From contig CAZWAK010000020.1 in assembly GCA_964631865.1 (NCBI GenBank), forward strand, positions 3,587-67,586: a stretch of 64,000 nucleotides of DNA. Reading direction: 5' to 3'. This DNA comes from an uncultured Heliobacteriaceae bacterium. Its GTDB lineage: Bacteria > Acidobacteriota > Blastocatellia > RBC074. The notes under the pieces were generated by a model. The model did no database searches, had not been told where the DNA came from, and saw only the letters and a list, made by a program, of their open reading frames with translations. Every line of letters begins with the position of its first letter. Within the stretch, counting starts at the first letter, position 1. Shown here piece after piece: positions 3,950-55,373 of the stretch. Made by a program: the position numbers and the translations under genes.

Positions 3950-4606
3950 ATGTCGTCTGTCTCAATCACTGCTTCCAGGCCTGTCTTTGGGATGCCCGCC
4001 GCTAAGAGCGCTTCTGTAGCGCGAGCAAACGTGATGGTGGGAACAACCACAACGAACCCGGCGGTGCCGGATTTCGAACTGACACAGGCTGCCTCCAAGG
4101 GCGATATGACTGCGTTCGAGACGTTATACGAACGCCACTATCGCCGCGTCTACAGCTTATGCTTACGCATGCTGGCCAACGCGACCGAAGCCGAAGACTT
4201 AACGCAGGAAGTTTTTGTGCAGCTTTTCCGCAAGCTCGGCAGCTTTCGCGGCGAATCGCAATTCACGACCTGGCTGCATCGGTTGACAGTCAATCAAGTC
4301 CTGATGCACTTCCGCAAAAAAGGCGTGAAGTTGGAAAAGACGACGGAAGAAGGCGACGAGTTGAATGACATCGTCCAAATGGGCACCGAACGACCGAGTT
4401 CGATGCCGGTCGTGGATCGCATTGCGCTGGACGATGCCATCGCGCAATTGCCGCCGGGCTATCGGTCGGTCTTTGTGCTGCACGATGTCGAAGGCTACGA
4501 ACACGAAGAAATTGGAAAGTTACTGGGAGTAAGCGTGGGCACGTCCAAATCGCAACTCCACAAAGCTCGGATGAAATTACGTGGCTTGTTAACGAAAAAA
4601 CTATAA
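3950..4606 (+). CDS. ECF sigma-70 factor
   Basis: Region 2 (AEDLTQEVF...[13 protein letters not shown]) and region 4 ([41 protein letters not shown]). Start uncertain (3932, 3950 or 4033). Confidence 0.92.
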
Positions 4607-11117: not shown

Positions 11118-11212
11118 CATTCTTCCTTCTTCATTCTTTACTCTTCATTCTTTTCGAGAAAAAAAGAAACCCTCTCGTCAGGAAGGAAGAAGGAAGAAGG
11201 AAGAAGAAAATG
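11118..11212. repeat. Inverted heptamer-repeat element (TTCTTCM vs GGAAGAA)
   Basis: Left arm 11118-11154, right arm 11181-11212 (GGAAGGAAGAAGGAAGAAGGAAGAAG). Confidence 0.75.
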
Positions 11213-11353
11213 CCTGATTTTACAGGCTTTCCATTCCGCCCACTCTGCAAATAATTGATAGCGCAAACGTTCAGTTTGCGTTGCGGCGCGAACAAATTCC
11301 TAAGTGACGCAACAAGGCAAACTGACCGTTTGCGCTACCCCTCTCCCAAACCT

Positions 11354-12275: not shown

Positions 12276-12383
12276 GGTGGCCGGTGATCGGTGGCTGGTG
12301 GCCGGTTCTCTCATAGATCAGTGATAGGTGATCGTGAGCCAAAGGTTTACTACCGACCACCGATCACCGGCCACCGACCACCG
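12276..12383. repeat. Inverted heptamer-repeat element (GGTGRYY x4 vs ACCGRYC x4) between convergent genes
   Basis: 12276-12306 GGTGGCC GGTGATC GGTGGCT GGTGGCC GGT. 12352-12383 ACCGACC ACCGATC ACCGGCC ACCGACC ACCG. Confidence 0.9.
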
Positions 12384-23819: not shown

Positions 23820-23851
23820 AATCTCAAATCTCAAATCTCAAATTTCAAATC
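23820..23851. repeat. Heptamer tandem array (AATYTCA x4.5) just before a start codon
   Basis: AATCTCA AATCTCA AATCTCA AATTTCA AATC, 5 nt before ATG 23857. Confidence 0.85.
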
Positions 23852-35386: not shown

Positions 35387-35418
35387 GTTGAGTGTTTTCG
35401 ATTTTAGCTGACAGGCAA

Positions 35419-35450
35419 AATCTCAAATTTCAAATTTCAAATCTCAAATC
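35419..35450. repeat. Heptamer tandem array (AATYTCA x4.5), same family as 23820
   Basis: AATCTCA AATTTCA AATTTCA AATCTCA AATC, 3 nt before ATG 35454. Confidence 0.85.
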
Positions 35451-35453
35451 TTC

Positions 35454-36302
35454 ATGAGCTTGCACGAAGACAATCAGCGCTTGCGCGAAGAACGCGATTT
35501 GTTGCGGCGGCGCTTGGCTGAATTGGAAGAAGGCTTCGCACACAGCAACAGGGAAGTCTTCGCGATGAACGAGGCGCTGGTGCAGATGAATGCGCGACTC
35601 AGCGAATTGGATCGCATGAAAGACACGTTTCTTTCGATGATCACGCACGAACTGCGCACGCCGATGACCGCGATGATCGGCCTCGCCGAAAACCTCGAAG
35701 CCGGTGTCTACGGCCCGCTCAACGAAACCCAAACCGAGACGCTGCACAAGATCATCGAAAGCGGCGGACGGCTGCGCCAACTCGTCAACGATTTGCTCGA
35801 CCTCTCCAAAATGGAAGCCGGTGCGATGCGCTTGCAACGCGAACCGCTTGATCCGCGCACGCTGGTCGAAGCCGTGATTTATCAATTGGAATCACTCGCC
35901 GAAGCAGGCGGCGTGAAGCTCGTCAATCGCGTCGGCTACGATCTGCCCGAAGTGGATTGCGACGGGCAACGCATCGAACAGGTGTTGACGAACCTCATCA
36001 GCAACGCGCTGAAATTTACGCCGCCGGATGGGAGCGTGACGATTTCTGCGGCGACGCAAAATGATTTTGTCGTCTTCACAGTCACGGACACCGGTTGCGG
36101 CATTCCGCCCGAATCGCAGGCACACATCTTCGACAAATTCATTCAGCTTCATCCGAACCGCGATGATCGCACGAAAGGCACAGGGCTTGGGTTGGCCATT
36201 GTGCGGCATTTGGTGGAACTGCACGGCGGCAGCGTGAGCGTCGAAAGCGAAGTCGGGCAGGGCAGCCGTTTTTCCTTCCGCCTGCCAATTTCGCAACAAT
36301 GA
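35454..36302 (+). CDS. Cytoplasmic histidine kinase (coiled coil + HisKA + HATPase_c)
   Basis: H-box [10 protein letters not shown]-box [11 protein letters not shown]1 DTGCGI, F-box IFDKF, G2 GTGLGLAI. No TM or sensor domain. Confidence 0.92.
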
Positions 36303-38923: not shown

Positions 38924-40618
38924 ATGCCTACAGATGTAGTGATGCCGCAACTCGGCGAATCCATTGCCGAAGGAACGATTGTGCGTTGGTTGAAAAAAGT
39001 CGGTGACAGCGTGCAACGCGATGAACCGTTACTCGAAGTTTCGACCGACAAGGTAGACACCGAAATTCCTGCCGCTGCGGCGGGAACGTTGATTGCCATT
39101 CTCGCGCAGGAAGGCGAAACCGTCGCGGTGAATGCGGTCATTGCACAACTCGGCGAAGCGGGAGAAGCTGCTGTGCCTGCCGCGCCTGCCGCAGCACCTG
39201 CGCCGCCGCCACCGCCTGCCGCGCCCGCTGCGGTTGCGCCGCCTGCGCTTGCTGCTCCGGCTGCGCCTGTTGCCGCTGGCGCTGCGACGAACGTTGTGAT
39301 GCCGCAACTCGGCGAATCCATTGCCGAAGGAACGATTGTGCGTTGGTTGAAAAAAGTCGGTGACAGCGTGCAACGCGATGAACCGTTACTCGAAGTTTCG
39401 ACCGACAAGGTAGACACCGAAATTCCTTCGCCCGTTGCGGGTACATTGTTGTCCATCCTCGCGCAAGAAGGTGACACTGTCGCGGTGAACACAGCGATTG
39501 CGACGATTGGCGAAGCCGGAGCCGCTGCCCCAGCCGCACCCGCGCCAACGCCTGCACCTGCTGCGCCCGCTGCACCTGCGCCGCCGCCTGTTGCACCGCC
39601 TGCCGCGCCTGCTGTGGCTGCGGCTGCTGCGGTGGGTGGTTCGATTGAAGATTTACGCCGCGTCAAATCTTCGCCCGTCGTGCGCAAGATCGCTTCTGAA
39701 CATAACGTTAACATCGCGCACATCGCGGGTTCCGGCATTTCCGGTCGCGTGACGAAGAAAGACATTCTCAACTTTATTGCGAATCCGCCTGCACGGCCTG
39801 CGGCTCCATTCGTTGCGCCGCCGCCCATTGTTGCACCGCCGCCTGTGGCTGCGCCTGTCGCGGCTCTGGCTGCGCCTGCGAAACCCGCTGCGCCAGCCTT
39901 CGCACCGGGCGAGCGCGTGAAGATCGAACCGATGTCGAAGATGCGCAAGTCCATTGCCGAACACATGGTCTTGAGCAAACACACCGCGCCGCACGTCACG
40001 ACGTTCTTTGAAGTGGACTTCACGAACATCGCGCGCTTGCGTGATCGCGTGAAAAAAGACTTCGAGGCGAAAAACGGCGCGAAACTCACGTTCATGCCGT
40101 TCATCATCAAAGCCACGATTGACGCGCTCAAAGCCTTGCCCATCGTGAATGCTTCGCTGGATGGCGACAACATCGTTTACAAACAAGACATCAACATCGG
40201 GATGGCTGTTGCGCTGGATTGGGGCTTGATCGTCCCCGTTATCAAACAAGCCGATTCGATGAATCTAATCGGCCTTGCACGCGCCACGCAAGACCTCGCT
40301 GCACGCGCACGCGGCAAGCAACTCAAGCCCGATGAAATCGCGGGCGGCACATTCTCAATCACGAACTTCGGCTTGTTCGGAGGCTTGACTGCAACACCGG
40401 TCATCAATCAACCGCAATCCGCGATCCTCGGTGTCGGCGGCATTCACAAACGTCCCTGGGTGATGGAAACCGAACACGGCGACGTGATTGCGATTCGCCA
40501 CATCGGCATCCTGAGCCTGTCGTTCGATCATCGTCTGATTGACGGCGCGGTTGGCGATGAGTTTTTGGCGACGATGAAGAAATCGCTGGAAACAACCGAT
40601 TTTTCGGGTTTGCTGTAA
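38924..40618 (+). CDS. 2-oxoacid dehydrogenase E2 (dihydrolipoamide acyltransferase, SucB/DlaT-like) with two lipoyl domains
   Basis: Two EVSTDKVDTEIP lipoyl motifs, Ala/Pro linkers, E3-binding SSPVVRKIA, catalytic SFDHRLIDG. Confidence 0.95.
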   Translation: MPTDVVMPQLGESIAEGTIVRWLKKVGDSVQRDEPLLEVSTDKVDTEIPAAAAGTLIAILAQEGETVAVNAVIAQLGEAGEAAVPAAPAAAPAPPPPPAAPAAVAPPALAAPAAPVAAGAATNVVMPQLGESIAEGTIVRWLKKVGDSVQRDEPLLEVSTDKVDTEIPSPVAGTLLSILAQEGDTVAVNTAIATIGEAGAAAPAAPAPTPAPAAPAAPAPPPVAPPAAPAVAAAAAVGGSIEDLRRVKSSPVVRKIASEHNVNIAHIAGSGISGRVTKKDILNFIANPPARPAAPFVAPPPIVAPPPVAAPVAALAAPAKPAAPAFAPGERVKIEPMSKMRKSIAEHMVLSKHTAPHVTTFFEVDFTNIARLRDRVKKDFEAKNGAKLTFMPFIIKATIDALKALPIVNASLDGDNIVYKQDINIGMAVALDWGLIVPVIKQADSMNLIGLARATQDLAARARGKQLKPDEIAGGTFSITNFGLFGGLTATPVINQPQSAILGVGGIHKRPWVMETEHGDVIAIRHIGILSLSFDHRLIDGAVGDEFLATMKKSLETTDFSGLL

Positions 40619-40621
40619 ACC

Positions 40622-40735
40622 AAAAGCATTCTCGATTCTCCATTCTCAATTCTCCATTCGCAGGCCGGGAAAGATCGAACAACGACTTCCTGGCAAAGAA
40701 TTGAGAATGGAGAATCGAGAATTGAGAATGCTTTT
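40622..40735. repeat. Inverted heptamer-repeat element (ATTCTCV vs BGAGAAT) with 12-bp terminal IR
   Basis: AAAAGCATTCTC...(40622-40659) and ...GAGAATGCTTTT (40698-40735). Ends 3 nt before lipB ATG. Confidence 0.9.
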
Positions 40736-40738
40736 CCC

Positions 40739-41395
40739 ATGAAGGTTTGCGAATATCGTTATCTCGGTCGCACCCCTTACGCCGAAGCTTTAGCGTTGCA
40801 ACAAGCACTGCACGATGCGCGCAAGCGTGACGAAGTTTCGGACACGCTGCTCTTGCTCGAACATCCGCACGTCATTACACTGGGGCGCGGAGCGAATCGC
40901 GCGAATATTCTCGCCGATGAGCAGACGCGCGCCGCGAAGCACGTCGAATTATTTGAAACGGGTCGCGGCGGCGATGTTACCTATCACGGGCCAGGGCAGC
41001 TCGTCGGCTATCCCATCATCAACTTAGCGCCGGATCGTCAGGATGTGCGCCGTTACGTGCGCGACATCCAGGAGGTACTCGTGCGCACCGCGCGGGACTT
41101 CGGCGTCGAGGCCGAACCGCGCGGCGGGGAATATGTGGGCGTTTGGGTCGGTGATGACAAGCTCGCGGCCATCGGCATTCGCATTTCGCGTTGGGTGACG
41201 ATGCACGGCTTCGCCTTCAATGTCTCGACCGATTTAGATTACTTCAACCTCATCATTCCTTGCGGCATCGCCGCTCACGGTGTAACCTCACTCGAAAAAA
41301 TTCTTGGAGAAACAATCGCACTCGAAGCCGTCGCCGAAGCCGTCACGAAACATTTCGGCGATGTATTTCAACGTGAAATCGTCAGTCGTTCGTAG
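40739..41395 (+). CDS. lipB: Lipoyl(octanoyl) transferase
   Basis: LLEHPHVITLG, RGGDVTYHGPGQLVGYPI, KLAAIG, TMHGFAFN, IIPCG. Confidence 0.96.
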   Translation: MKVCEYRYLGRTPYAEALALQQALHDARKRDEVSDTLLLLEHPHVITLGRGANRANILADEQTRAAKHVELFETGRGGDVTYHGPGQLVGYPIINLAPDRQDVRRYVRDIQEVLVRTARDFGVEAEPRGGEYVGVWVGDDKLAAIGIRISRWVTMHGFAFNVSTDLDYFNLIIPCGIAAHGVTSLEKILGETIALEAVAEAVTKHFGDVFQREIVSRS

Positions 41396-41455
41396 TCCGT
41401 CGTCAGTTGGTTTCCAGACGAGGGCTACTGGCAACTGACAACGGACAACGGACAA
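41384..41455. repeat. Inverted heptamer-repeat element (GTCCGTY vs CAACGGA)
   Basis: GTCCGTCGTCAGTTG (41395-41409) pairs with CAACTGACAACGGAC (41432-41446). Contains the lipB stop and ends 2 nt before ATG 41458. Confidence 0.8.
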
Positions 41456-46307: not shown

Positions 46308-46874
46308 ATGGTTATGACTACGATAGCTCGACGTTGGACATCAGCGGATTTGGCGATGTTGCCGGACGACAACAATCGCTACGAGATCATTGCCGGCGAG
46401 TTGTATGTTTCTGGCCTGCCGCATTACGCGCACCAACGAGCCTGCACTAACATCTGTGGCTTGCTCGGAGAGTTTTCGCGGCAAACCAAGCTGGGCGAAC
46501 CAGTCTACGGACGGGGAATTCTTTTTGCCGAAGATGAAGAAGTGATTCCTGACATTGCTTGGGTAAGTCGCCAACGACGCAGCGAGATTTTGGGCGCGGA
46601 CGGGCATTTTCACGGTGCGCCCGAATTAACGATTGAAGTGCTTGCCTATTCAGACGCAGACGTGCAACGCGACCGTGAGGCGAAGCTCAACCTCTATGCG
46701 CGGCGCGGCGTGGATGAATACTGGATCGTGGATTGGAAAGCTCAGCAGGTCGAAGTTTATCGGCGCGTTGCGTCTGTGCTGGAACTGGTCGCCACATTGA
46801 GTGCCACAGAGACATTAACCTCGCCTCGGCTGCCCGGCTTTAGTTGTCTTGTCGGGGAAATATTCGAGGACTGA
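46308..46874 (+). CDS. Uma2 family PD-(D/E)XK endonuclease-like protein
   Basis: NRYEIIAGEL, IPDIAW, PELTIEV, DREAKLNLYARRGVDEYWIVD. Confidence 0.88.
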   Translation: MVMTTIARRWTSADLAMLPDDNNRYEIIAGELYVSGLPHYAHQRACTNICGLLGEFSRQTKLGEPVYGRGILFAEDEEVIPDIAWVSRQRRSEILGADGHFHGAPELTIEVLAYSDADVQRDREAKLNLYARRGVDEYWIVDWKAQQVEVYRRVASVLELVATLSATETLTSPRLPGFSCLVGEIFED

Positions 46875-46889
46875 CACTTTTACGAATTT

Positions 46890-47120
46890 ATGCCGAATCC
46901 GAATGCCAAACAGCCGCAGAATGTGCCGGGGCGCTTTTATGTGGACACGAATTGTATTGATTGCGATGTCTGCCGCGACTTAGCTGAAAACAATTTCACG
47001 CGCCACGATGATGGCGGCTATTCCTACGTGTACAAACAACCCACCACGCCGGAAGAAGAAGCCCTCTGTCAGGAAGCGTTGGAGGTTTGCCCCGTCGAAG
47101 CGATTGGAAAGACTGCTTAG
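46890..47120 (+). CDS. Single-cluster ferredoxin
   Basis: YVDTNCIDCDVC...CPVEAIG. Confidence 0.9.
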   Translation: MPNPNAKQPQNVPGRFYVDTNCIDCDVCRDLAENNFTRHDDGGYSYVYKQPTTPEEEALCQEALEVCPVEAIGKTA

Positions 47121-47121
47121 A

Positions 47122-47216
47122 GTAGACGGTAGACAGTAGACGGTAGACAGTAGGCGGTAGAAGAGCTATCGCGTGACATCGAACTACCGACTACCGTCTA
47201 CCGTCTACCGTCTACT
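47122..47216. repeat. Empty inverted heptamer element (GTAGACR x5.5 vs CTACCGT x4.5)
   Basis: Arms 47122-47160 and 47184-47215 around a 23-nt core. Same heptamer as the flanks of the four-helix-bundle gene. Confidence 0.92.
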
Positions 47217-47886
47217 CCTTCCTCCACACGCTCCCATCCACATACTCAATCCGCTTGATCGCAACCGCGTCCTGATGAAATTGCGACGGGTCTTGAAAGC
47301 TCTTGCTGCACACGGATTCAAATGCCTTGCCGTCGCTGATCGTCACCACTTTGCATTTCATTGCACCTTGCGGCAGCGGTTGTTTGAGCGTTTTTTTGCC
47401 ACCGGGTTTGATCTCGGCTTTGCTCGTCACGTCGTAGCGCAACAGCAGCTTGCCGTCTTCATAACGCGGAAAGGCGAAGTCCCAGACGATGGTTTTGATG
47501 GCTTTGTCCGAGGTGTTTTTGAGCGAGAGGTTCACCCACTCGGCCAGATCAATCACGCGAATCGTCGAGCGCAATCTGCCGCCGCTTTTGTCTTCGGGCG
47601 CAATCACGCCGCGCGGGGTGGATTGGTTGTAAGTCGAATTCCCACGATTCGCCTGCGCTGTGCGGCGCGCGATTTTTTCGGCTTCGGTGGGCGGAATCTC
47701 CACCGCTTCTGCCGTGAAGGCGGAAGGCTGACGATCCAGCAGCGGGTAGTAATTGTTGCCGATTTTGAAGCTGATGATTTCGAGCGCAGGCTTGTCAGCG
47801 GCTTGGTTCGATTGCGCGAGGCCAGAAGCGGAAGCGCAAACAACGCTCAGCAAAACTAACCACGACCGGAGTAACAGGCTTCTCAT
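47212..47886 (-). CDS. Secreted hypothetical protein
   Basis: Signal peptide, Ig-like beta content (NLSLKNTSDKAIKTIVWDF...IKRIEYVDGSVW). The stop TAG lies in the repeat arm. Confidence 0.75.
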   Translation of the reverse strand: MRSLLLRSWLVLLSVVCASASGLAQSNQAADKPALEIISFKIGNNYYPLLDRQPSAFTAEAVEIPPTEAEKIARRTAQANRGNSTYNQSTPRGVIAPEDKSGGRLRSTIRVIDLAEWVNLSLKNTSDKAIKTIVWDFAFPRYEDGKLLLRYDVTSKAEIKPGGKKTLKQPLPQGAMKCKVVTISDGKAFESVCSKSFQDPSQFHQDAVAIKRIEYVDGSVWRKE

Positions 47887-47945: not shown

Positions 47946-47992
47946 AAAGGAAAAGAAAAGCTCGCCCGATAAAAAATATCAGGCGAGCTTTT
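47946..47992 (-). terminator. Rho-independent terminator of the TonB receptor gene
   Basis: Minus strand AAAAGCTCGCCTGATA-loop-TATCGGGCGAGCTTTT followed by CTTTTCCTTTC. Confidence 0.8.
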
Positions 47993-53324: not shown

Positions 53325-53335
53325 GCTTTGCTGGA

Positions 53336-53434
53336 GTAGACGGTAGACGGTAGACGGTAGGTTTAGGCACCAGGTTCCATTGCGCTGCGCGAGCGTGCGA
53401 TCAATCGCCAGCGCAATGGGACGGTAGACGGTAG
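53336..53434. repeat. Left arm of four-helix-bundle element: GTAGACG array, including a 37-bp direct duplication
   Basis: GTAGACG x3.5 at 53336-53360. 53346-53382 is identical to 53420-53456. Confidence 0.9.
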
Positions 53435-53466
53435 GTTTAGGCACCAGGTTCCATTGGGGAGAAATT

Positions 53467-53838
53467 ATGTCGCCGGCAAAAACATTTCAGGACTTGGAGG
53501 TTTGGAAGTTGGCACATCAGTTTGTGTTGAGTATTTACAAACTGACGGAAGGACTGCCGAAGCACGAAATGTTTGGGTTGACCTCGCAGTTACGTCGAGC
53601 GGCGGTTTCCGTTCCGGCGAATATTGCCGAAGGTTTCAAAAAGCGAACTCCTGCGGACAAGGCAAAGTTCTATAACATCTCGCAAGGCTCACTAGAAGAA
53701 TGCCGTTATTACCTGATCCTGATCCACGATCTTCAATATGCAGAAACCCCTCAGTTGCAAGATGAAGTAGATCGAATAGCCCGTGTTCTCGATTCCTATT
53801 TGAAAGCGATGTTAGAAGGATTTGCGACCTCTCGATAA
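53467..53838 (+). CDS. Four helix bundle protein (23S rRNA IVP / Avd-like family)
   Basis: FQDLEVWKLAH, LPKHEMFGLTSQLRRAAVSVPANIAEG, FYNISQGSLEECRYYLIL..DLQY. Confidence 0.95.
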   Translation: MSPAKTFQDLEVWKLAHQFVLSIYKLTEGLPKHEMFGLTSQLRRAAVSVPANIAEGFKKRTPADKAKFYNISQGSLEECRYYLILIHDLQYAETPQLQDEVDRIARVLDSYLKAMLEGFATSR

Positions 53839-53841
53839 CAA

Positions 53842-53927
53842 CTACCGTCTACCGTCTACCGTCTACCGTCTACCGTCTACTGTCTACTGTCTACCGTCTA
53901 CCGTCTACCGTCTACTGTCTACTGTCT
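53842..53927. repeat. Right arm: CTACYGT x12 tandem array, reverse complement of left arm
   Basis: 12 complete heptamers at 53842-53925, ending 3 nt before ATG 53929. Confidence 0.95.
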
Positions 53928-53928
53928 T

Positions 53929-55197
53929 ATGCCTAATCCTGTTGTCACTGCGATCCGAAGCGGCTCTGCGCCTGCGCCCGCGAAAATGGCGGCGGCGCGT
54001 GCAGCCCTGCCGTTGCCGCCCGAACACATGCTCGAAGTGCTCGTCTTGTTGACGCAGGACGCGGACGCTGAACTGAGCGCGACCGCGACGAAATCGCTCA
54101 ACGAATTTGACGCGGAACGGATGAAGAATGTGGTGATGATGAAAGAAACCGCGCGCGACGTGTTGCAACATTTATGCTCGTGGCGCGGCGGCAAACGCGA
54201 AGTCTATGAAGCTTTGATCCTGAACGACGCGACGCCTGATCCAGGCATCACGGAATTGGCGCGCTGGAACAAAGACGGCGCGGTGCTCGAACTCATCGCG
54301 ATCAATCAGGAGCGCATGATTCGTTACCCCGACATCATCAGCGCGCTCATTGACAACAAAGCCAGCACGCCCGAAGCCGTGCGCCGCGCGACCGAAGTGC
54401 GCATTGAATTCTTCGAGAAAGAACTCGGCGCAAAACGCATCGAAGAAGAACGCCGCGCCCGTGCCGCCGCCGCTTCGGCAGCATTGGGCTTACGCTACGT
54501 CGAAGAATCGCTCGTCGAATTGATTGACGAAGACATCGCGGCAGAAGACTTGAAGTTGGAAAACGCGCTGGGGTCGGAAGATGATCCGAAGATCGGGCCG
54601 GAATTCCTCCGCGCCATTCGCGACGAAGTCCAGCGCGTGCAAGCCGAGCCAGTCGTGGAAGCGCCCGTCGTCGCGCCGCCTGAGACCCCAGCCGAAGCCG
54701 CGCCCGACGAGGATGTAGAAACACAACAGGCCGTCAACGAAATCCTCAATCAGATGAAGGCCGATGGCGAAGAAGCGACGGCGGAACGGCTGACGATTAT
54801 GCAAAAGATCGCGCGCATGAGTGCGAAGGCGCGCGTGCAATTGGCGCTCAAAGGCAACCGCGAAGCGCGCAACATTCTGCGTCGCGATTCCAGCAAATCC
54901 GTCATCCTCGGCGTGCTGGGCAACCCGCGCATCACCGAATCTGAAGTCGAAGCGATTTCGGCGATGAAGACCTTGCCCGAAGAAGCGTTGCGCTTGATTG
55001 CCCTGAACCGCATGTGGATTCGCAACTATCCGATTGTTCACAATCTGGTGCGCAACGCGCGCACGCCCGTCGCGACGAGTCTGCCGCTCTTGAATCGCTT
55101 GTTCCCGAAAGACCTCAAAGGCCTGACCGGCAATCGCAACGTGCCCGATGTGTTGCGCAAACAGGCGGATCGGTTGGTGAAGGCGAAGAAGATTTAG
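53929..55197 (+). CDS. Conserved hypothetical helical-repeat protein
   Basis: 422-aa alpha-helical ORF with acidic linker and C-terminal repeats (LALKGNREARNILRRD...VLGNPRITESEV...LVRNARTP). Confidence 0.8.
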   Translation: MPNPVVTAIRSGSAPAPAKMAAARAALPLPPEHMLEVLVLLTQDADAELSATATKSLNEFDAERMKNVVMMKETARDVLQHLCSWRGGKREVYEALILNDATPDPGITELARWNKDGAVLELIAINQERMIRYPDIISALIDNKASTPEAVRRATEVRIEFFEKELGAKRIEEERRARAAAASAALGLRYVEESLVELIDEDIAAEDLKLENALGSEDDPKIGPEFLRAIRDEVQRVQAEPVVEAPVVAPPETPAEAAPDEDVETQQAVNEILNQMKADGEEATAERLTIMQKIARMSAKARVQLALKGNREARNILRRDSSKSVILGVLGNPRITESEVEAISAMKTLPEEALRLIALNRMWIRNYPIVHNLVRNARTPVATSLPLLNRLFPKDLKGLTGNRNVPDVLRKQADRLVKAKKI

Positions 55198-55221
55198 GCA
55201 GTCACACAAAAATTCTGCGCG

Positions 55222-55373
55222 GTGGCGCGATTTGCTAAATCGCGTTACGAACCCCTGCGGTGTGGCGCGATTTGCCAAATCGCGTTACGAACCCCTGCGG
55301 TGTGGCGCGATTTGCCAAATCGCGTTACGAACCCCTGCGGTGTGGCGCGATTTGCCAAATCGCGCTACGAACC
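55222..55373. repeat. Tandem array of four 40-bp REP units (GTGG + CGCGATTTG-C-CAAATCGCG palindrome)
   Basis: Units start at 55222, 55262, 55302 and 55342, with identical 13-nt linkers GAACCCCTGCGGT, between convergent genes. Confidence 0.9.

Follow-up and report, generated by a model that had tools for sequence, protein, structure and literature searches.

Introduction

In many bacteria, no other simple repeats are as over-represented as heptanucleotide repeats. In cyanobacteria, Mazel et al. reportedly described short tandemly repeated repetitive (STRR) heptanucleotides in 1990, and we know of no explanation offered for them since; nor, to our knowledge, has a function been found since 1993 for the S23p open reading frame (ORF) of rRNA intervening sequences (IVSs). 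Here, both are compared with a palindrome in a stretch of 64,000 nucleotides (nt) from an uncultured soil/biofilter bacterium of the Blastocatellia (phylum Acidobacteriota; assembly GCA_964631865.1, contig CAZWAK010000020.1), called the window throughout, with positions counted from its first letter. At 47120–47217, inverted arrays of the heptamer GTAGACR enclose a short loop between two convergent genes, and ~6 kb away, at 53335–53927, arms with the same unit and the same termini (GAGTAGAC...GTCTACTC) enclose a gene for a four-helix-bundle (4HB) protein. The first of these is best read, with a probability of roughly 55%, as a cargo-less member of a dispersed palindromic family with 7-nt tandem arms, in which the same arms and termini enclose PF05635/TIGR02436 4HB genes.

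The 23S rRNA IVSs with an S23p ORF, known from Leptospira and Coxiella burnetii, carry a gene of the same family as the cargo at 53467–53838, a gene type that was originally recognised in such IVSs, and their terminal inverted repeats pair as a long stem cut by RNase III. The Coxiella IVS has a PF05635 (S23p) ORF and a 28-bp terminal stem that is cut by RNase III, and its 5′ part holds two to three tandem heptamers (GACAGAT/GACAGAA), the number of which varies by strain (PMC4990558). These heptamers are close to the AGRAKWC consensus of the 4HB cassette arms described below. In contrast to the IVSs, which lie in 23S rRNA, both window elements lie between protein-coding genes, and the hairpin at 47120–47217 has no ORF and arms that are pure multi-unit heptamer arrays.

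STRRs are similar in being intergenic tandem heptanucleotide arrays with many copies per genome and no established function. At a cyanobacterial 4HB locus (L019, Sphaerospermopsis), the gene is adjoined by (GGGGACT)n, the reverse complement of STRR1 (CCCCAGT), and one locus orthologous to the window (L091) has (CCCCAGC)n arms at the junction of its E2 acyltransferase and LplA genes. However, STRRs have been described as arrays in heterocystous cyanobacteria and not as obligate inverted pairs, and their canonical units are CCCCAGT, TTGGTCA and CAACAGT, whereas the unit here is GTAGACR in a Blastocatellia bacterium.

REP/REPIN sequences, which RAYT transposases mobilise, and miniature inverted-repeat transposable elements (MITEs) such as Correia are likewise short, extragenic, non-coding palindromes that are dispersed in multiple copies, often at gene ends, but the arms of the hairpin are tandem 7-mers and not unique sequence, and the only linked gene encodes a four-helix bundle of 123 amino acids (aa). 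A MITE-type partner with the same ends does exist (53335–53927), but its sole ORF is PF05635/TIGR02436 and not a known transposase; no RAYT (Y1 transposase) is found in the Pfam tables of the syntenic neighbours, and no dedicated genome-wide search for one was made. Intrinsic bidirectional terminators also form a stable stem-loop exactly between two convergent stops; the hairpin differs from them in lacking a T- or A-run on either side, in its stem of ~30–38 bp, far longer than typical, and in being multi-copy. Finally, Avd, the accessory protein of diversity-generating retroelements, has a homologous pentameric four-helix-bundle fold, and the NCBIfam Avd model matches the cargo weakly (E 9e-5, below cut-off), but no reverse transcriptase or template/variable repeats lie nearby and the cargo belongs to the IVS subfamily. 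Set beside these systems, the hairpin is a variant of IVS-type cassettes, STRR-like repeats and REP-like palindromes. Apart from the Coxiella IVS, the only direct precedent, no general description of heptamer arms around PF05635 genes, or of a link to STRRs, was found in the searchable literature, outside which most subscription journals fall, and a prior description is possible.

Results

Anatomy of the cargo-less and loaded elements

The two elements of the window are composed as follows.

47120–47217 (98 bases): cargo-less, near-perfect palindrome, (GTAGACR)x5.7, loop of 22–30 nt, (YGTCTAC)x4.6
47120–47161: left arm, terminus GAGTAGAC followed by (GTAGACR)x5.7
47162–47183: loop, AGAGCTATCGCGTGACATCGAA
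47184–47217: right arm, (YGTCTAC)x4.6, with terminus GTCTACTC at its end
53335–53360, plus strand: cassette left arm, AGTAGACG followed by (GTAGACG)x2.6, with terminus GAGTAGAC; counted over 53336–53360, (GTAGACG)x3.6
53361–53466, plus strand: cassette leader, conserved in L011–L013
53467–53838, plus strand: cargo gene for a 4HB protein of the 23S-rRNA-IVS / S23p family, 123 aa
53842–53927, plus strand: cassette right arm, (YGTCTAC)x12.3

The cargo-less element runs from GAGTAGAC to GTCTACTC with the unit GGTAGAC or, equivalently, GTAGACR. Its left-arm units (47122–47161) read GTAGACG, GTAGACA, GTAGACG, GTAGACA, GTAGGCG and GTAGA, the final two being degenerate, and its right-arm units (47184–47215) read CTACCGA, three times CTACCGT, and CTAC, followed by TC. 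Tandem Repeats Finder assigned the arms a period of 7 with 5.7 and 4.6 copies, and an inverted-repeat finder returned arms of 34 nt with 91% complementarity and a spacing of 30 nt or, in an alternative register, arms of 32 nt with a spacing of 23 nt. With at most one mismatch, the double unit GTAGACRGTAGACR was matched 19 times in the 64-kb window, always within 47122–47215 and 53336–53922, compared with 0.00 matches in shuffled sequence. Folded as RNA, the plus strand of the hairpin reaches −60.9 kcal/mol (z −6.9) and the minus strand −67.9 kcal/mol (z −7.8), and the G-TAG-ACG units of the element place a TAG stop in every frame on both strands within 18 nt. The loop has no second copy in the window or the fetched loci, and an Rfam scan of the whole window gave no family match, rRNA included.

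The loaded cassette is a stem of at least 20 bp of terminal inverted repeats around a PF05635 ORF; 47120–47217 has the stem without the ORF. In the predicted fold of the 611-nt cassette RNA, both arms pair as an outer 27-bp stem, and the right arm ends 1 nt before the ATG (53929–53931) of the next gene. The cargo ORF matches TIGR02436 (E 2e-34) and PF05635 (E 6e-36), and the closest solved structure is the pentameric XCC0516 (2GSC, E 1.5e-18). None of the PADLOC defence-system models matches the 4HB protein, and a search of viral contigs for relatives of the cargo found none, giving no sign of phage carriage. In the cassette leader (53350–53455), GACGGTAGACGGTAGGTTTAGGCACCAGGTTCCATTG (~37 nt) occurs twice, ~70 nt in all, and its copies flank a small palindrome, CCATTGCGCTGCGCGAGCGTGCGATCAATCGCCAGCGCAATGG (CCATTGCGCTG..CAGCGCAATGG); the relatives L011–L013 have the leader in a single copy, and the duplication looks like a secondary small insertion with duplication. 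A different repeat family is found further on, where a 40-nt unit is repeated in tandem four times (96% matches) at 55215–55373, just after the gene ending at 55197, each unit containing the palindrome GCGCGATTTGCCAAATCGCG.

The two genes that meet at the cargo-less hairpin are:

46890–47120, plus strand: ferredoxin gene (fdx), 76 aa, with a single 4Fe-4S cluster domain (PF13370, E 1.8e-21)
47212–47886, minus strand: convergent gene for a 224-aa protein without family match

An earlier interpretation drawn from the letters and their ORFs (hereafter the sequence-only reading) had placed the GTAGACG/CGTCTAC arms of 53336–53927, here around a short core, exactly between two convergent stops. Both observations hold. 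The loop measures 22 nt, or 23 or 30 nt depending on the register; the palindrome starts on the last base of the ferredoxin TAG stop (47118–47120), and the stop of the 224-aa gene (plus-strand CTA, 47212–47214) lies inside the last right-arm unit. Essentially all of the homologs found for the 224-aa protein come from Blastocatellia. On the far side of the ferredoxin gene, and adjoining it, is a gene for a Uma2-family putative endonuclease (46308–46874) that matches the PADLOC candidate defence family PDC-S03 (E 8e-28). A canonical intrinsic terminator with a 16-bp stem and a T-run lies at 47992–47956 (minus strand), after the TonB-like receptor gene, and indicates that the genome uses ordinary terminators beside heptamer palindromes.

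History of the hairpin at the ferredoxin junction

Presence and absence of the hairpin, a comparison that the sequence-only reading had proposed, were aligned across nine orthologous loci (L006, L008, L009, L091, L092, L093, L214, L215 and L216), all of which share the gene order lipA–(Uma2)–fdx, the convergent genes for the 224-aa protein and a TonB-like receptor, and then GFO_IDH. A heptamer hairpin occupies the junction in five other genomes: L091 and L092 have four GTAGACR units per arm, L006 and L009 have GTAGAC or GTAGTC units outside and GTTGTC units inside, and L008 has ~1.5 units. The junction of L216 retains a degenerate stem. No hairpin is present in L093 and L214, in which the two stops lie 3 nt and 8 nt apart, respectively, or in L215, in which another gene lies between. 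At the hairpin-bearing loci both genes terminate in or at the arms, and the folding energies of the orthologous junction hairpins range from −27 to −51 kcal/mol (z −3.4 to −8.7), compared with z near 0 for hairpin-less junctions. A 4HB gene was found at none of the nine junctions. The Uma2 gene is missing in L093 and L214, genomes that are also without the hairpin.

A neighbour-joining tree of the 224-aa protein and LipA groups the hairpin bearers in a single clade that excludes L093, L214 and L215. The simplest history is that a Blastocatellia clade gained the hairpin a single time and that it was then remodelled where it stood: units were gained and lost, variant units spread from the loop side, and the loop flipped. 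GAAGAGC at the left side of the window loop is shared with the orthologous loops of L009 and L091, and the loops of L092 and L008 read as the reverse complement of those of L009 and L091 (alignment scores of 18 for reverse complement versus 4 for forward, and 13 versus 8). Such flips fit recombination between inverted arms, which produces flipping. The copy at 47120–47217 is old, being common to a species clade at ~80–89% protein identity and having evolved in place, and is not a recent insertion.

Cassette sites in related genomes

Close relatives of the cargo (83–91% aa identity), in other metagenome-assembled genomes of Blastocatellia, have the same arms, the termini GAGTAGAC...GTCTACTC and a conserved leader. 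Their cassettes occupy at least three sites: between coxS- and coxL-like genes in L011 and L012, elsewhere in L013, and after GFO_IDH in the window. The orthologous site downstream of GFO_IDH in L006, L008, L009, L091, L093 and L216 has neither a 4HB gene nor a heptamer hairpin. Ordinary GC-rich hairpins are found there in L008, L091, L093 and L216, followed by a T-run in L091, L216 and probably L008; L009 has a different long palindrome, and L006 has nothing obvious. Related genomes thus carry the cassette in different places, and relatives lack it at the orthologous site. A second palindrome family is present in the window at 11259–11337 (TAGCGCAAACGTTCAGTTTGCG...CGCAAACTGACCGTTTGCGCTA), and a similar element (GCGCGAACTGTTAGTTTGCGT...ACGCAAACTGACAGTTCGCGC) lies in L009 (~4420–4598), downstream of GFO_IDH, where the window has the 4HB cassette.

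Further copies in metagenomes

The exact sequence is present in biofilter metagenomes, where short-read contigs stop in the repeat. In the source metagenomes, depth is 8–13 in the flanks of the hairpin, 160–870 in the arms, and 1.5–5 times that of the flank over the body of the 4HB gene. The excess depth of the arms comes from ~60 contigs per run (59–61) with unrelated flanks, several of them at the depth of the host genome (~9–10). One contig of 7549 nt holds a second copy of arms and loop with 7 differences, in flanks less than 80% alike, and other contigs join arms over loops of 5–16 nt. In addition, metagenomes of the Joint Genome Institute (JGI) were scanned for (GTAGACR)3 and partner arms were called with an alignment-based detector, which gave 80 loci, ~20 of them short-loop hairpins and two with a 4HB ORF between the arms. 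In several empty copies the arms are compound, the outer units being GTAGAC and those towards the loop being variants. No 4HB coding or leader remnant was found in empty copies by tblastn or blastn-short, in which only the heptamers matched. The source community holds dozens of further GTAGACR-armed loci, most of the resolved ones apparently empty, and few related 4HB copies.

Two loci have more elaborate structures. In L121 (6433–6632), four tandem left-arm modules, each (GGTAGAC)3-4 followed by AGGGTTTTTTATCC, precede a single right arm, and in L166 (5765–5945) a GTAGACG palindrome surrounds a second heptamer palindrome, (GGGAACA)n...(TGTTCCC)n.

Arms and gene as one unit across phyla

The association between heptamer arms and 4HB genes was assessed at 80 loci encoding relatives of the cargo (57–91% identity; L011–L090) in more than 15 phyla, the hosts including Acidobacteriota, Cyanobacteria, Verrucomicrobiota, Planctomycetota, Bacteroidota, Nitrospirota, delta-proteobacteria, Chloroflexota and Bacillota. 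Within 350 nt of the gene, a period-7 array is present on the upstream side at 53 loci, on the downstream side at 45 and on both sides at 33. When the 300-nt flanks on the two sides of the gene were scored for the best stem that they form together (threshold of at least 16), a bracketing stem was found at 40 of 79 loci versus 0 of 291 control positions obtained by shifting within these loci, and the median period-7 fraction in these stems was 0.83. The 5′ arm unit has the consensus A-G-R-A-K-W-C (72 loci), the strength of which is somewhat inflated as the rotation rule favours that register; examples are AGGAGTC, AGAAGTC, AGAATAC, GGAAGAC and GGTAGAC. Protein identity declines with unit distance, also between phyla, from 0.71 at 0 differences to 0.63–0.65 at 3–5 (rho −0.27, the pairs not being independent). 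The bracketing arms and this co-variation indicate that arms and gene behave as one inheritance unit. In more than 15 phyla, a gene enclosed by heptamer arms is the general design of this 4HB subfamily, with a unit that varies along with the lineage of the protein.

The 4HB proteins from these phyla are 57–66% identical to the window protein, which is unusually high for hosts so distant and suggests that 4HB genes are often transferred horizontally. L047 and L066 are a pair of cassettes separated by a few kb on a single contig. Elsewhere, PF05635 genes are described as wedged within cas operons (PMC3936711).

Other heptamer palindromes in the window and syntenic block

The window contains at least five further palindromes built of other units, so the identity of the heptamer does not define the class:

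171–262: (CCATTYT)n...(ARAATGG)n palindrome, z −7.2
11118–11206: (CWTTCTT)n...(GAAGGAA)n palindrome, with a weaker stem than the others, z −2.3
12276–12383: (GGTGRYC)n...(GRYCACC)n palindrome at a convergent gene junction, −66.3 kcal/mol, z −6.3
40622–40735: (CATTCTC)n...(GAGAATG)n palindrome with 38-nt arms, filling the gap between the E2 and LplA genes, −62.3 kcal/mol, z −9.0
41380–41455: (GTCNGTY)n...(CAACGGA)n palindrome directly upstream of the SDF transporter gene, z −4.3

These palindromes fill short intergenic gaps almost exactly and adjoin stop and start codons. In a scan of periods, tandem-arm hairpins with period 7 numbered 4 in the window, 6 in the orthologous loci and 10 in the 4HB loci, compared with 0–1 at periods 5, 6 and 8–11. 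The palindrome at 41380–41455 is conserved as far as the outgroup L214. More generally, the E2-to-LplA and LplA-to-SDF junctions of L006, L008, L009, L091, L093, L214 and L216 have heptamer palindromes in most species, with differing units. At the former junction, the window has CATTCTC, L008 and L093 have GAAAAGY, and L091 has CCCCAGC; at the latter, the units are GTCCGTT, GTKAACA and TAGATGY. Turnover or replacement of units in place is thus frequent at the junctions of this syntenic block.

The pyrimidine-rich arm comes first in three of the window palindromes, a polarity opposite to that of the cassette arms. Single (AATYTCA)n arrays of ~5 units lie directly upstream of start codons at 23820–23851 and 35418–35454, with no clear partner arm. 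Within the E2 acyltransferase gene, a 357-nt tandem duplication (38939–39603, 83% matches) corresponds to repeated lipoyl domains and linkers.

Discussion

Competing explanations

That the element belongs to a mobile or dynamic family and not to random microsatellites, as the sequence-only reading had held, is borne out: further copies exist, the cassette occupies at least three sites, and the sequence is not fixed but varies among relatives, with the hairpin present in some orthologs and absent from others. Its suggestion of a MITE-like derivative stands in part, as inverted repeats and dispersed copies with unrelated flanks agree with it, but a strict MITE does not fit the lack of a visible duplication and of a known transposase. 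The second origin that it had offered, a deletion scar, fares worse and seems very improbable. According to this idea, a loaded 4HB cassette at the junction lost its gene and left its arms behind; long palindromes are prone to internal deletion, and arms and termini are the same as those of the loaded cassette 6 kb away. However, the lack of any 4HB coding or leader remnant in this or other empty copies makes such a scar unlikely; in addition, none of the orthologs has the gene at the site, and the GAAGAGC part of the loop is shared with orthologs and unrelated to the interior of the cassette. Even less credible, to the point of being negligible, is the chance complementarity of two unrelated microsatellites. 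The sole point for it is that heptanucleotide repeats are generally abundant in some bacteria (PMC4679880), and it is rejected by the shuffles, in which no matches are expected, by the fold z-scores of −6.9 and −7.8 and by conservation of the structure at the orthologous site in five other genomes.

Two further explanations stay alive because the units at other junctions are species-specific. One, which we regard as unlikely, is that intergenic hairpins are resident and act as landing pads into whose loops the 4HB gene inserts, making 47120–47217 an unoccupied target and not a derivative. S23p-type IVSs occupy the terminal loops of 23S rRNA helices, in keeping with such a preference. Empty copies far outnumber loaded ones, hairpins of many different units stand at most short junctions of the syntenic block, and co-variation of unit and protein would also be expected if the protein recognised its own unit; the location of S23p-type IVSs in 23S rRNA helices, helix 45 in Coxiella (PMC4990558), points the same way. 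However, in the six relatives examined at the cassette site there is no heptamer hairpin but canonical terminators or another palindrome instead, and cassettes at three sites share termini and leader directly beside the arms. The other explanation, rather unlikely in our view, is that an ordinary gene-end stem-loop (a terminator or mRNA stabiliser) grew locally from a short palindrome, through slippage of heptamers and correction of the quasi-palindrome, and came to resemble the cassette arms by gene conversion between nearby repeats and not through common descent as a mobile unit. The ~1.5 units of L008 might represent a seed state, orthologs differ in copy number and unit type, with new units arising on the loop side, and heptamer hairpins occur where relatives have canonical terminators; the GTTGTC units of L006 and L009 resemble the nearby LplA-to-SDF hairpin and suggest exchange between loci, and the lack of wobble bias and of target duplication also suits a local origin. 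Against it, the outgroup stops lie 3–8 nt apart without a palindrome, which means that ~50–100 nt either arrived in one step or grew without any precursor, cassettes in other genomes have identical termini (GAGTAGAC...GTCTACTC), and there are dozens of copies with the same unit, including one further copy with the same loop.

Several observations count against a cargo-less family member with a role at transcript ends. Many junctions in this lineage have heptamer hairpins with unrelated, species-specific units, and birth and turnover in place may explain some or all empty copies. Around 50 of the 80 JGI arrays have no detectable partner arm, most of the loci that are neither short-loop hairpins nor loaded being unpaired arrays or truncated at contig ends, and copy number in this one genome is only estimated, as the excess depth is that of a mixed community. 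By eye, no target-site duplication is apparent at four borders (the empty copy and the cassettes at three sites), which are too diverged to exclude one of 2–3 nt, and no known transposase is listed in the Pfam tables of orthologous flanking genes, the window's own flanks having been scanned only in part. At the RNA level, the terminator scan found the canonical terminator at 47992–47956 (minus) though not the hairpin, which has no T-run; past the stem, the plus strand reads CTCCTTCC and the minus strand CTAAGCAG. A search of RNA-seq and metatranscriptome runs found none that covers the hairpin, the one possible RNA run contributing a single 169-nt contig outside it. Finally, cassette stems contain 54 G-U versus 61 A-C mismatches (p = 0.58), with no sign of selection on a sense RNA. 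As sense-strand wobble bias is lacking, and as the loop flips fit, arm complementarity is seemingly kept by DNA-level processes.

A possible mechanism and its significance

If 47120–47217 is a cargo-less family member, the element gained once at the junction would have had arms only, and empty copies in general would have spread as arms-only units of the family and would be neither decayed cassettes nor locally born microsatellites. Complementarity of the arms could then be maintained in the DNA itself, through slippage combined with recombination or template switching from one arm to the other, as unit turnover and loop flips suggest, and not through selection on a sense-strand RNA stem. The likely role of the hairpin is to mark transcript ends as a stable RNA stem, or to serve as a site for RNase III, and to halt translation in every frame of either strand. 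When transcribed from either gene, the stem of ~30–38 bp (~35 bp on average) would form a 3′-end barrier and a probable RNase III substrate, by analogy to the homologous stems of 23S rRNA IVSs. Because the G-TAG-ACG units would halt translation in every frame on both strands, the element could insert directly against the ends of two genes without harm. The 4HB protein, as the product of the only linked gene, is the only candidate for a copying factor encoded by the element itself.

A broader and more tentative proposal, possible though doubtful, is that PF05635 cassettes and arms-only heptamer palindromes are one cross-phylum class of selfish elements that includes STRRs and S23p-type 23S IVSs. 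The pentameric 4HB protein would recognise AGRAKWC-type arrays, whether RNA or DNA, and would drive their copying or guide it, and the empty hairpins would be non-autonomous partners.

For annotation, heptamer palindromes of this kind supply stop codons, replace terminators and break short-read assemblies. The wider pattern, in which PF05635 genes lie in inverted AGRAKWC-type heptamer arrays with many empty counterparts, is a more interesting result than the single hairpin. It would tie together the heptanucleotide repeats of bacteria, the STRRs and the S23p ORF through a 4HB gene that moves between phyla in inverted AGRAKWC-type arrays, accompanied by many gene-less copies at gene ends.

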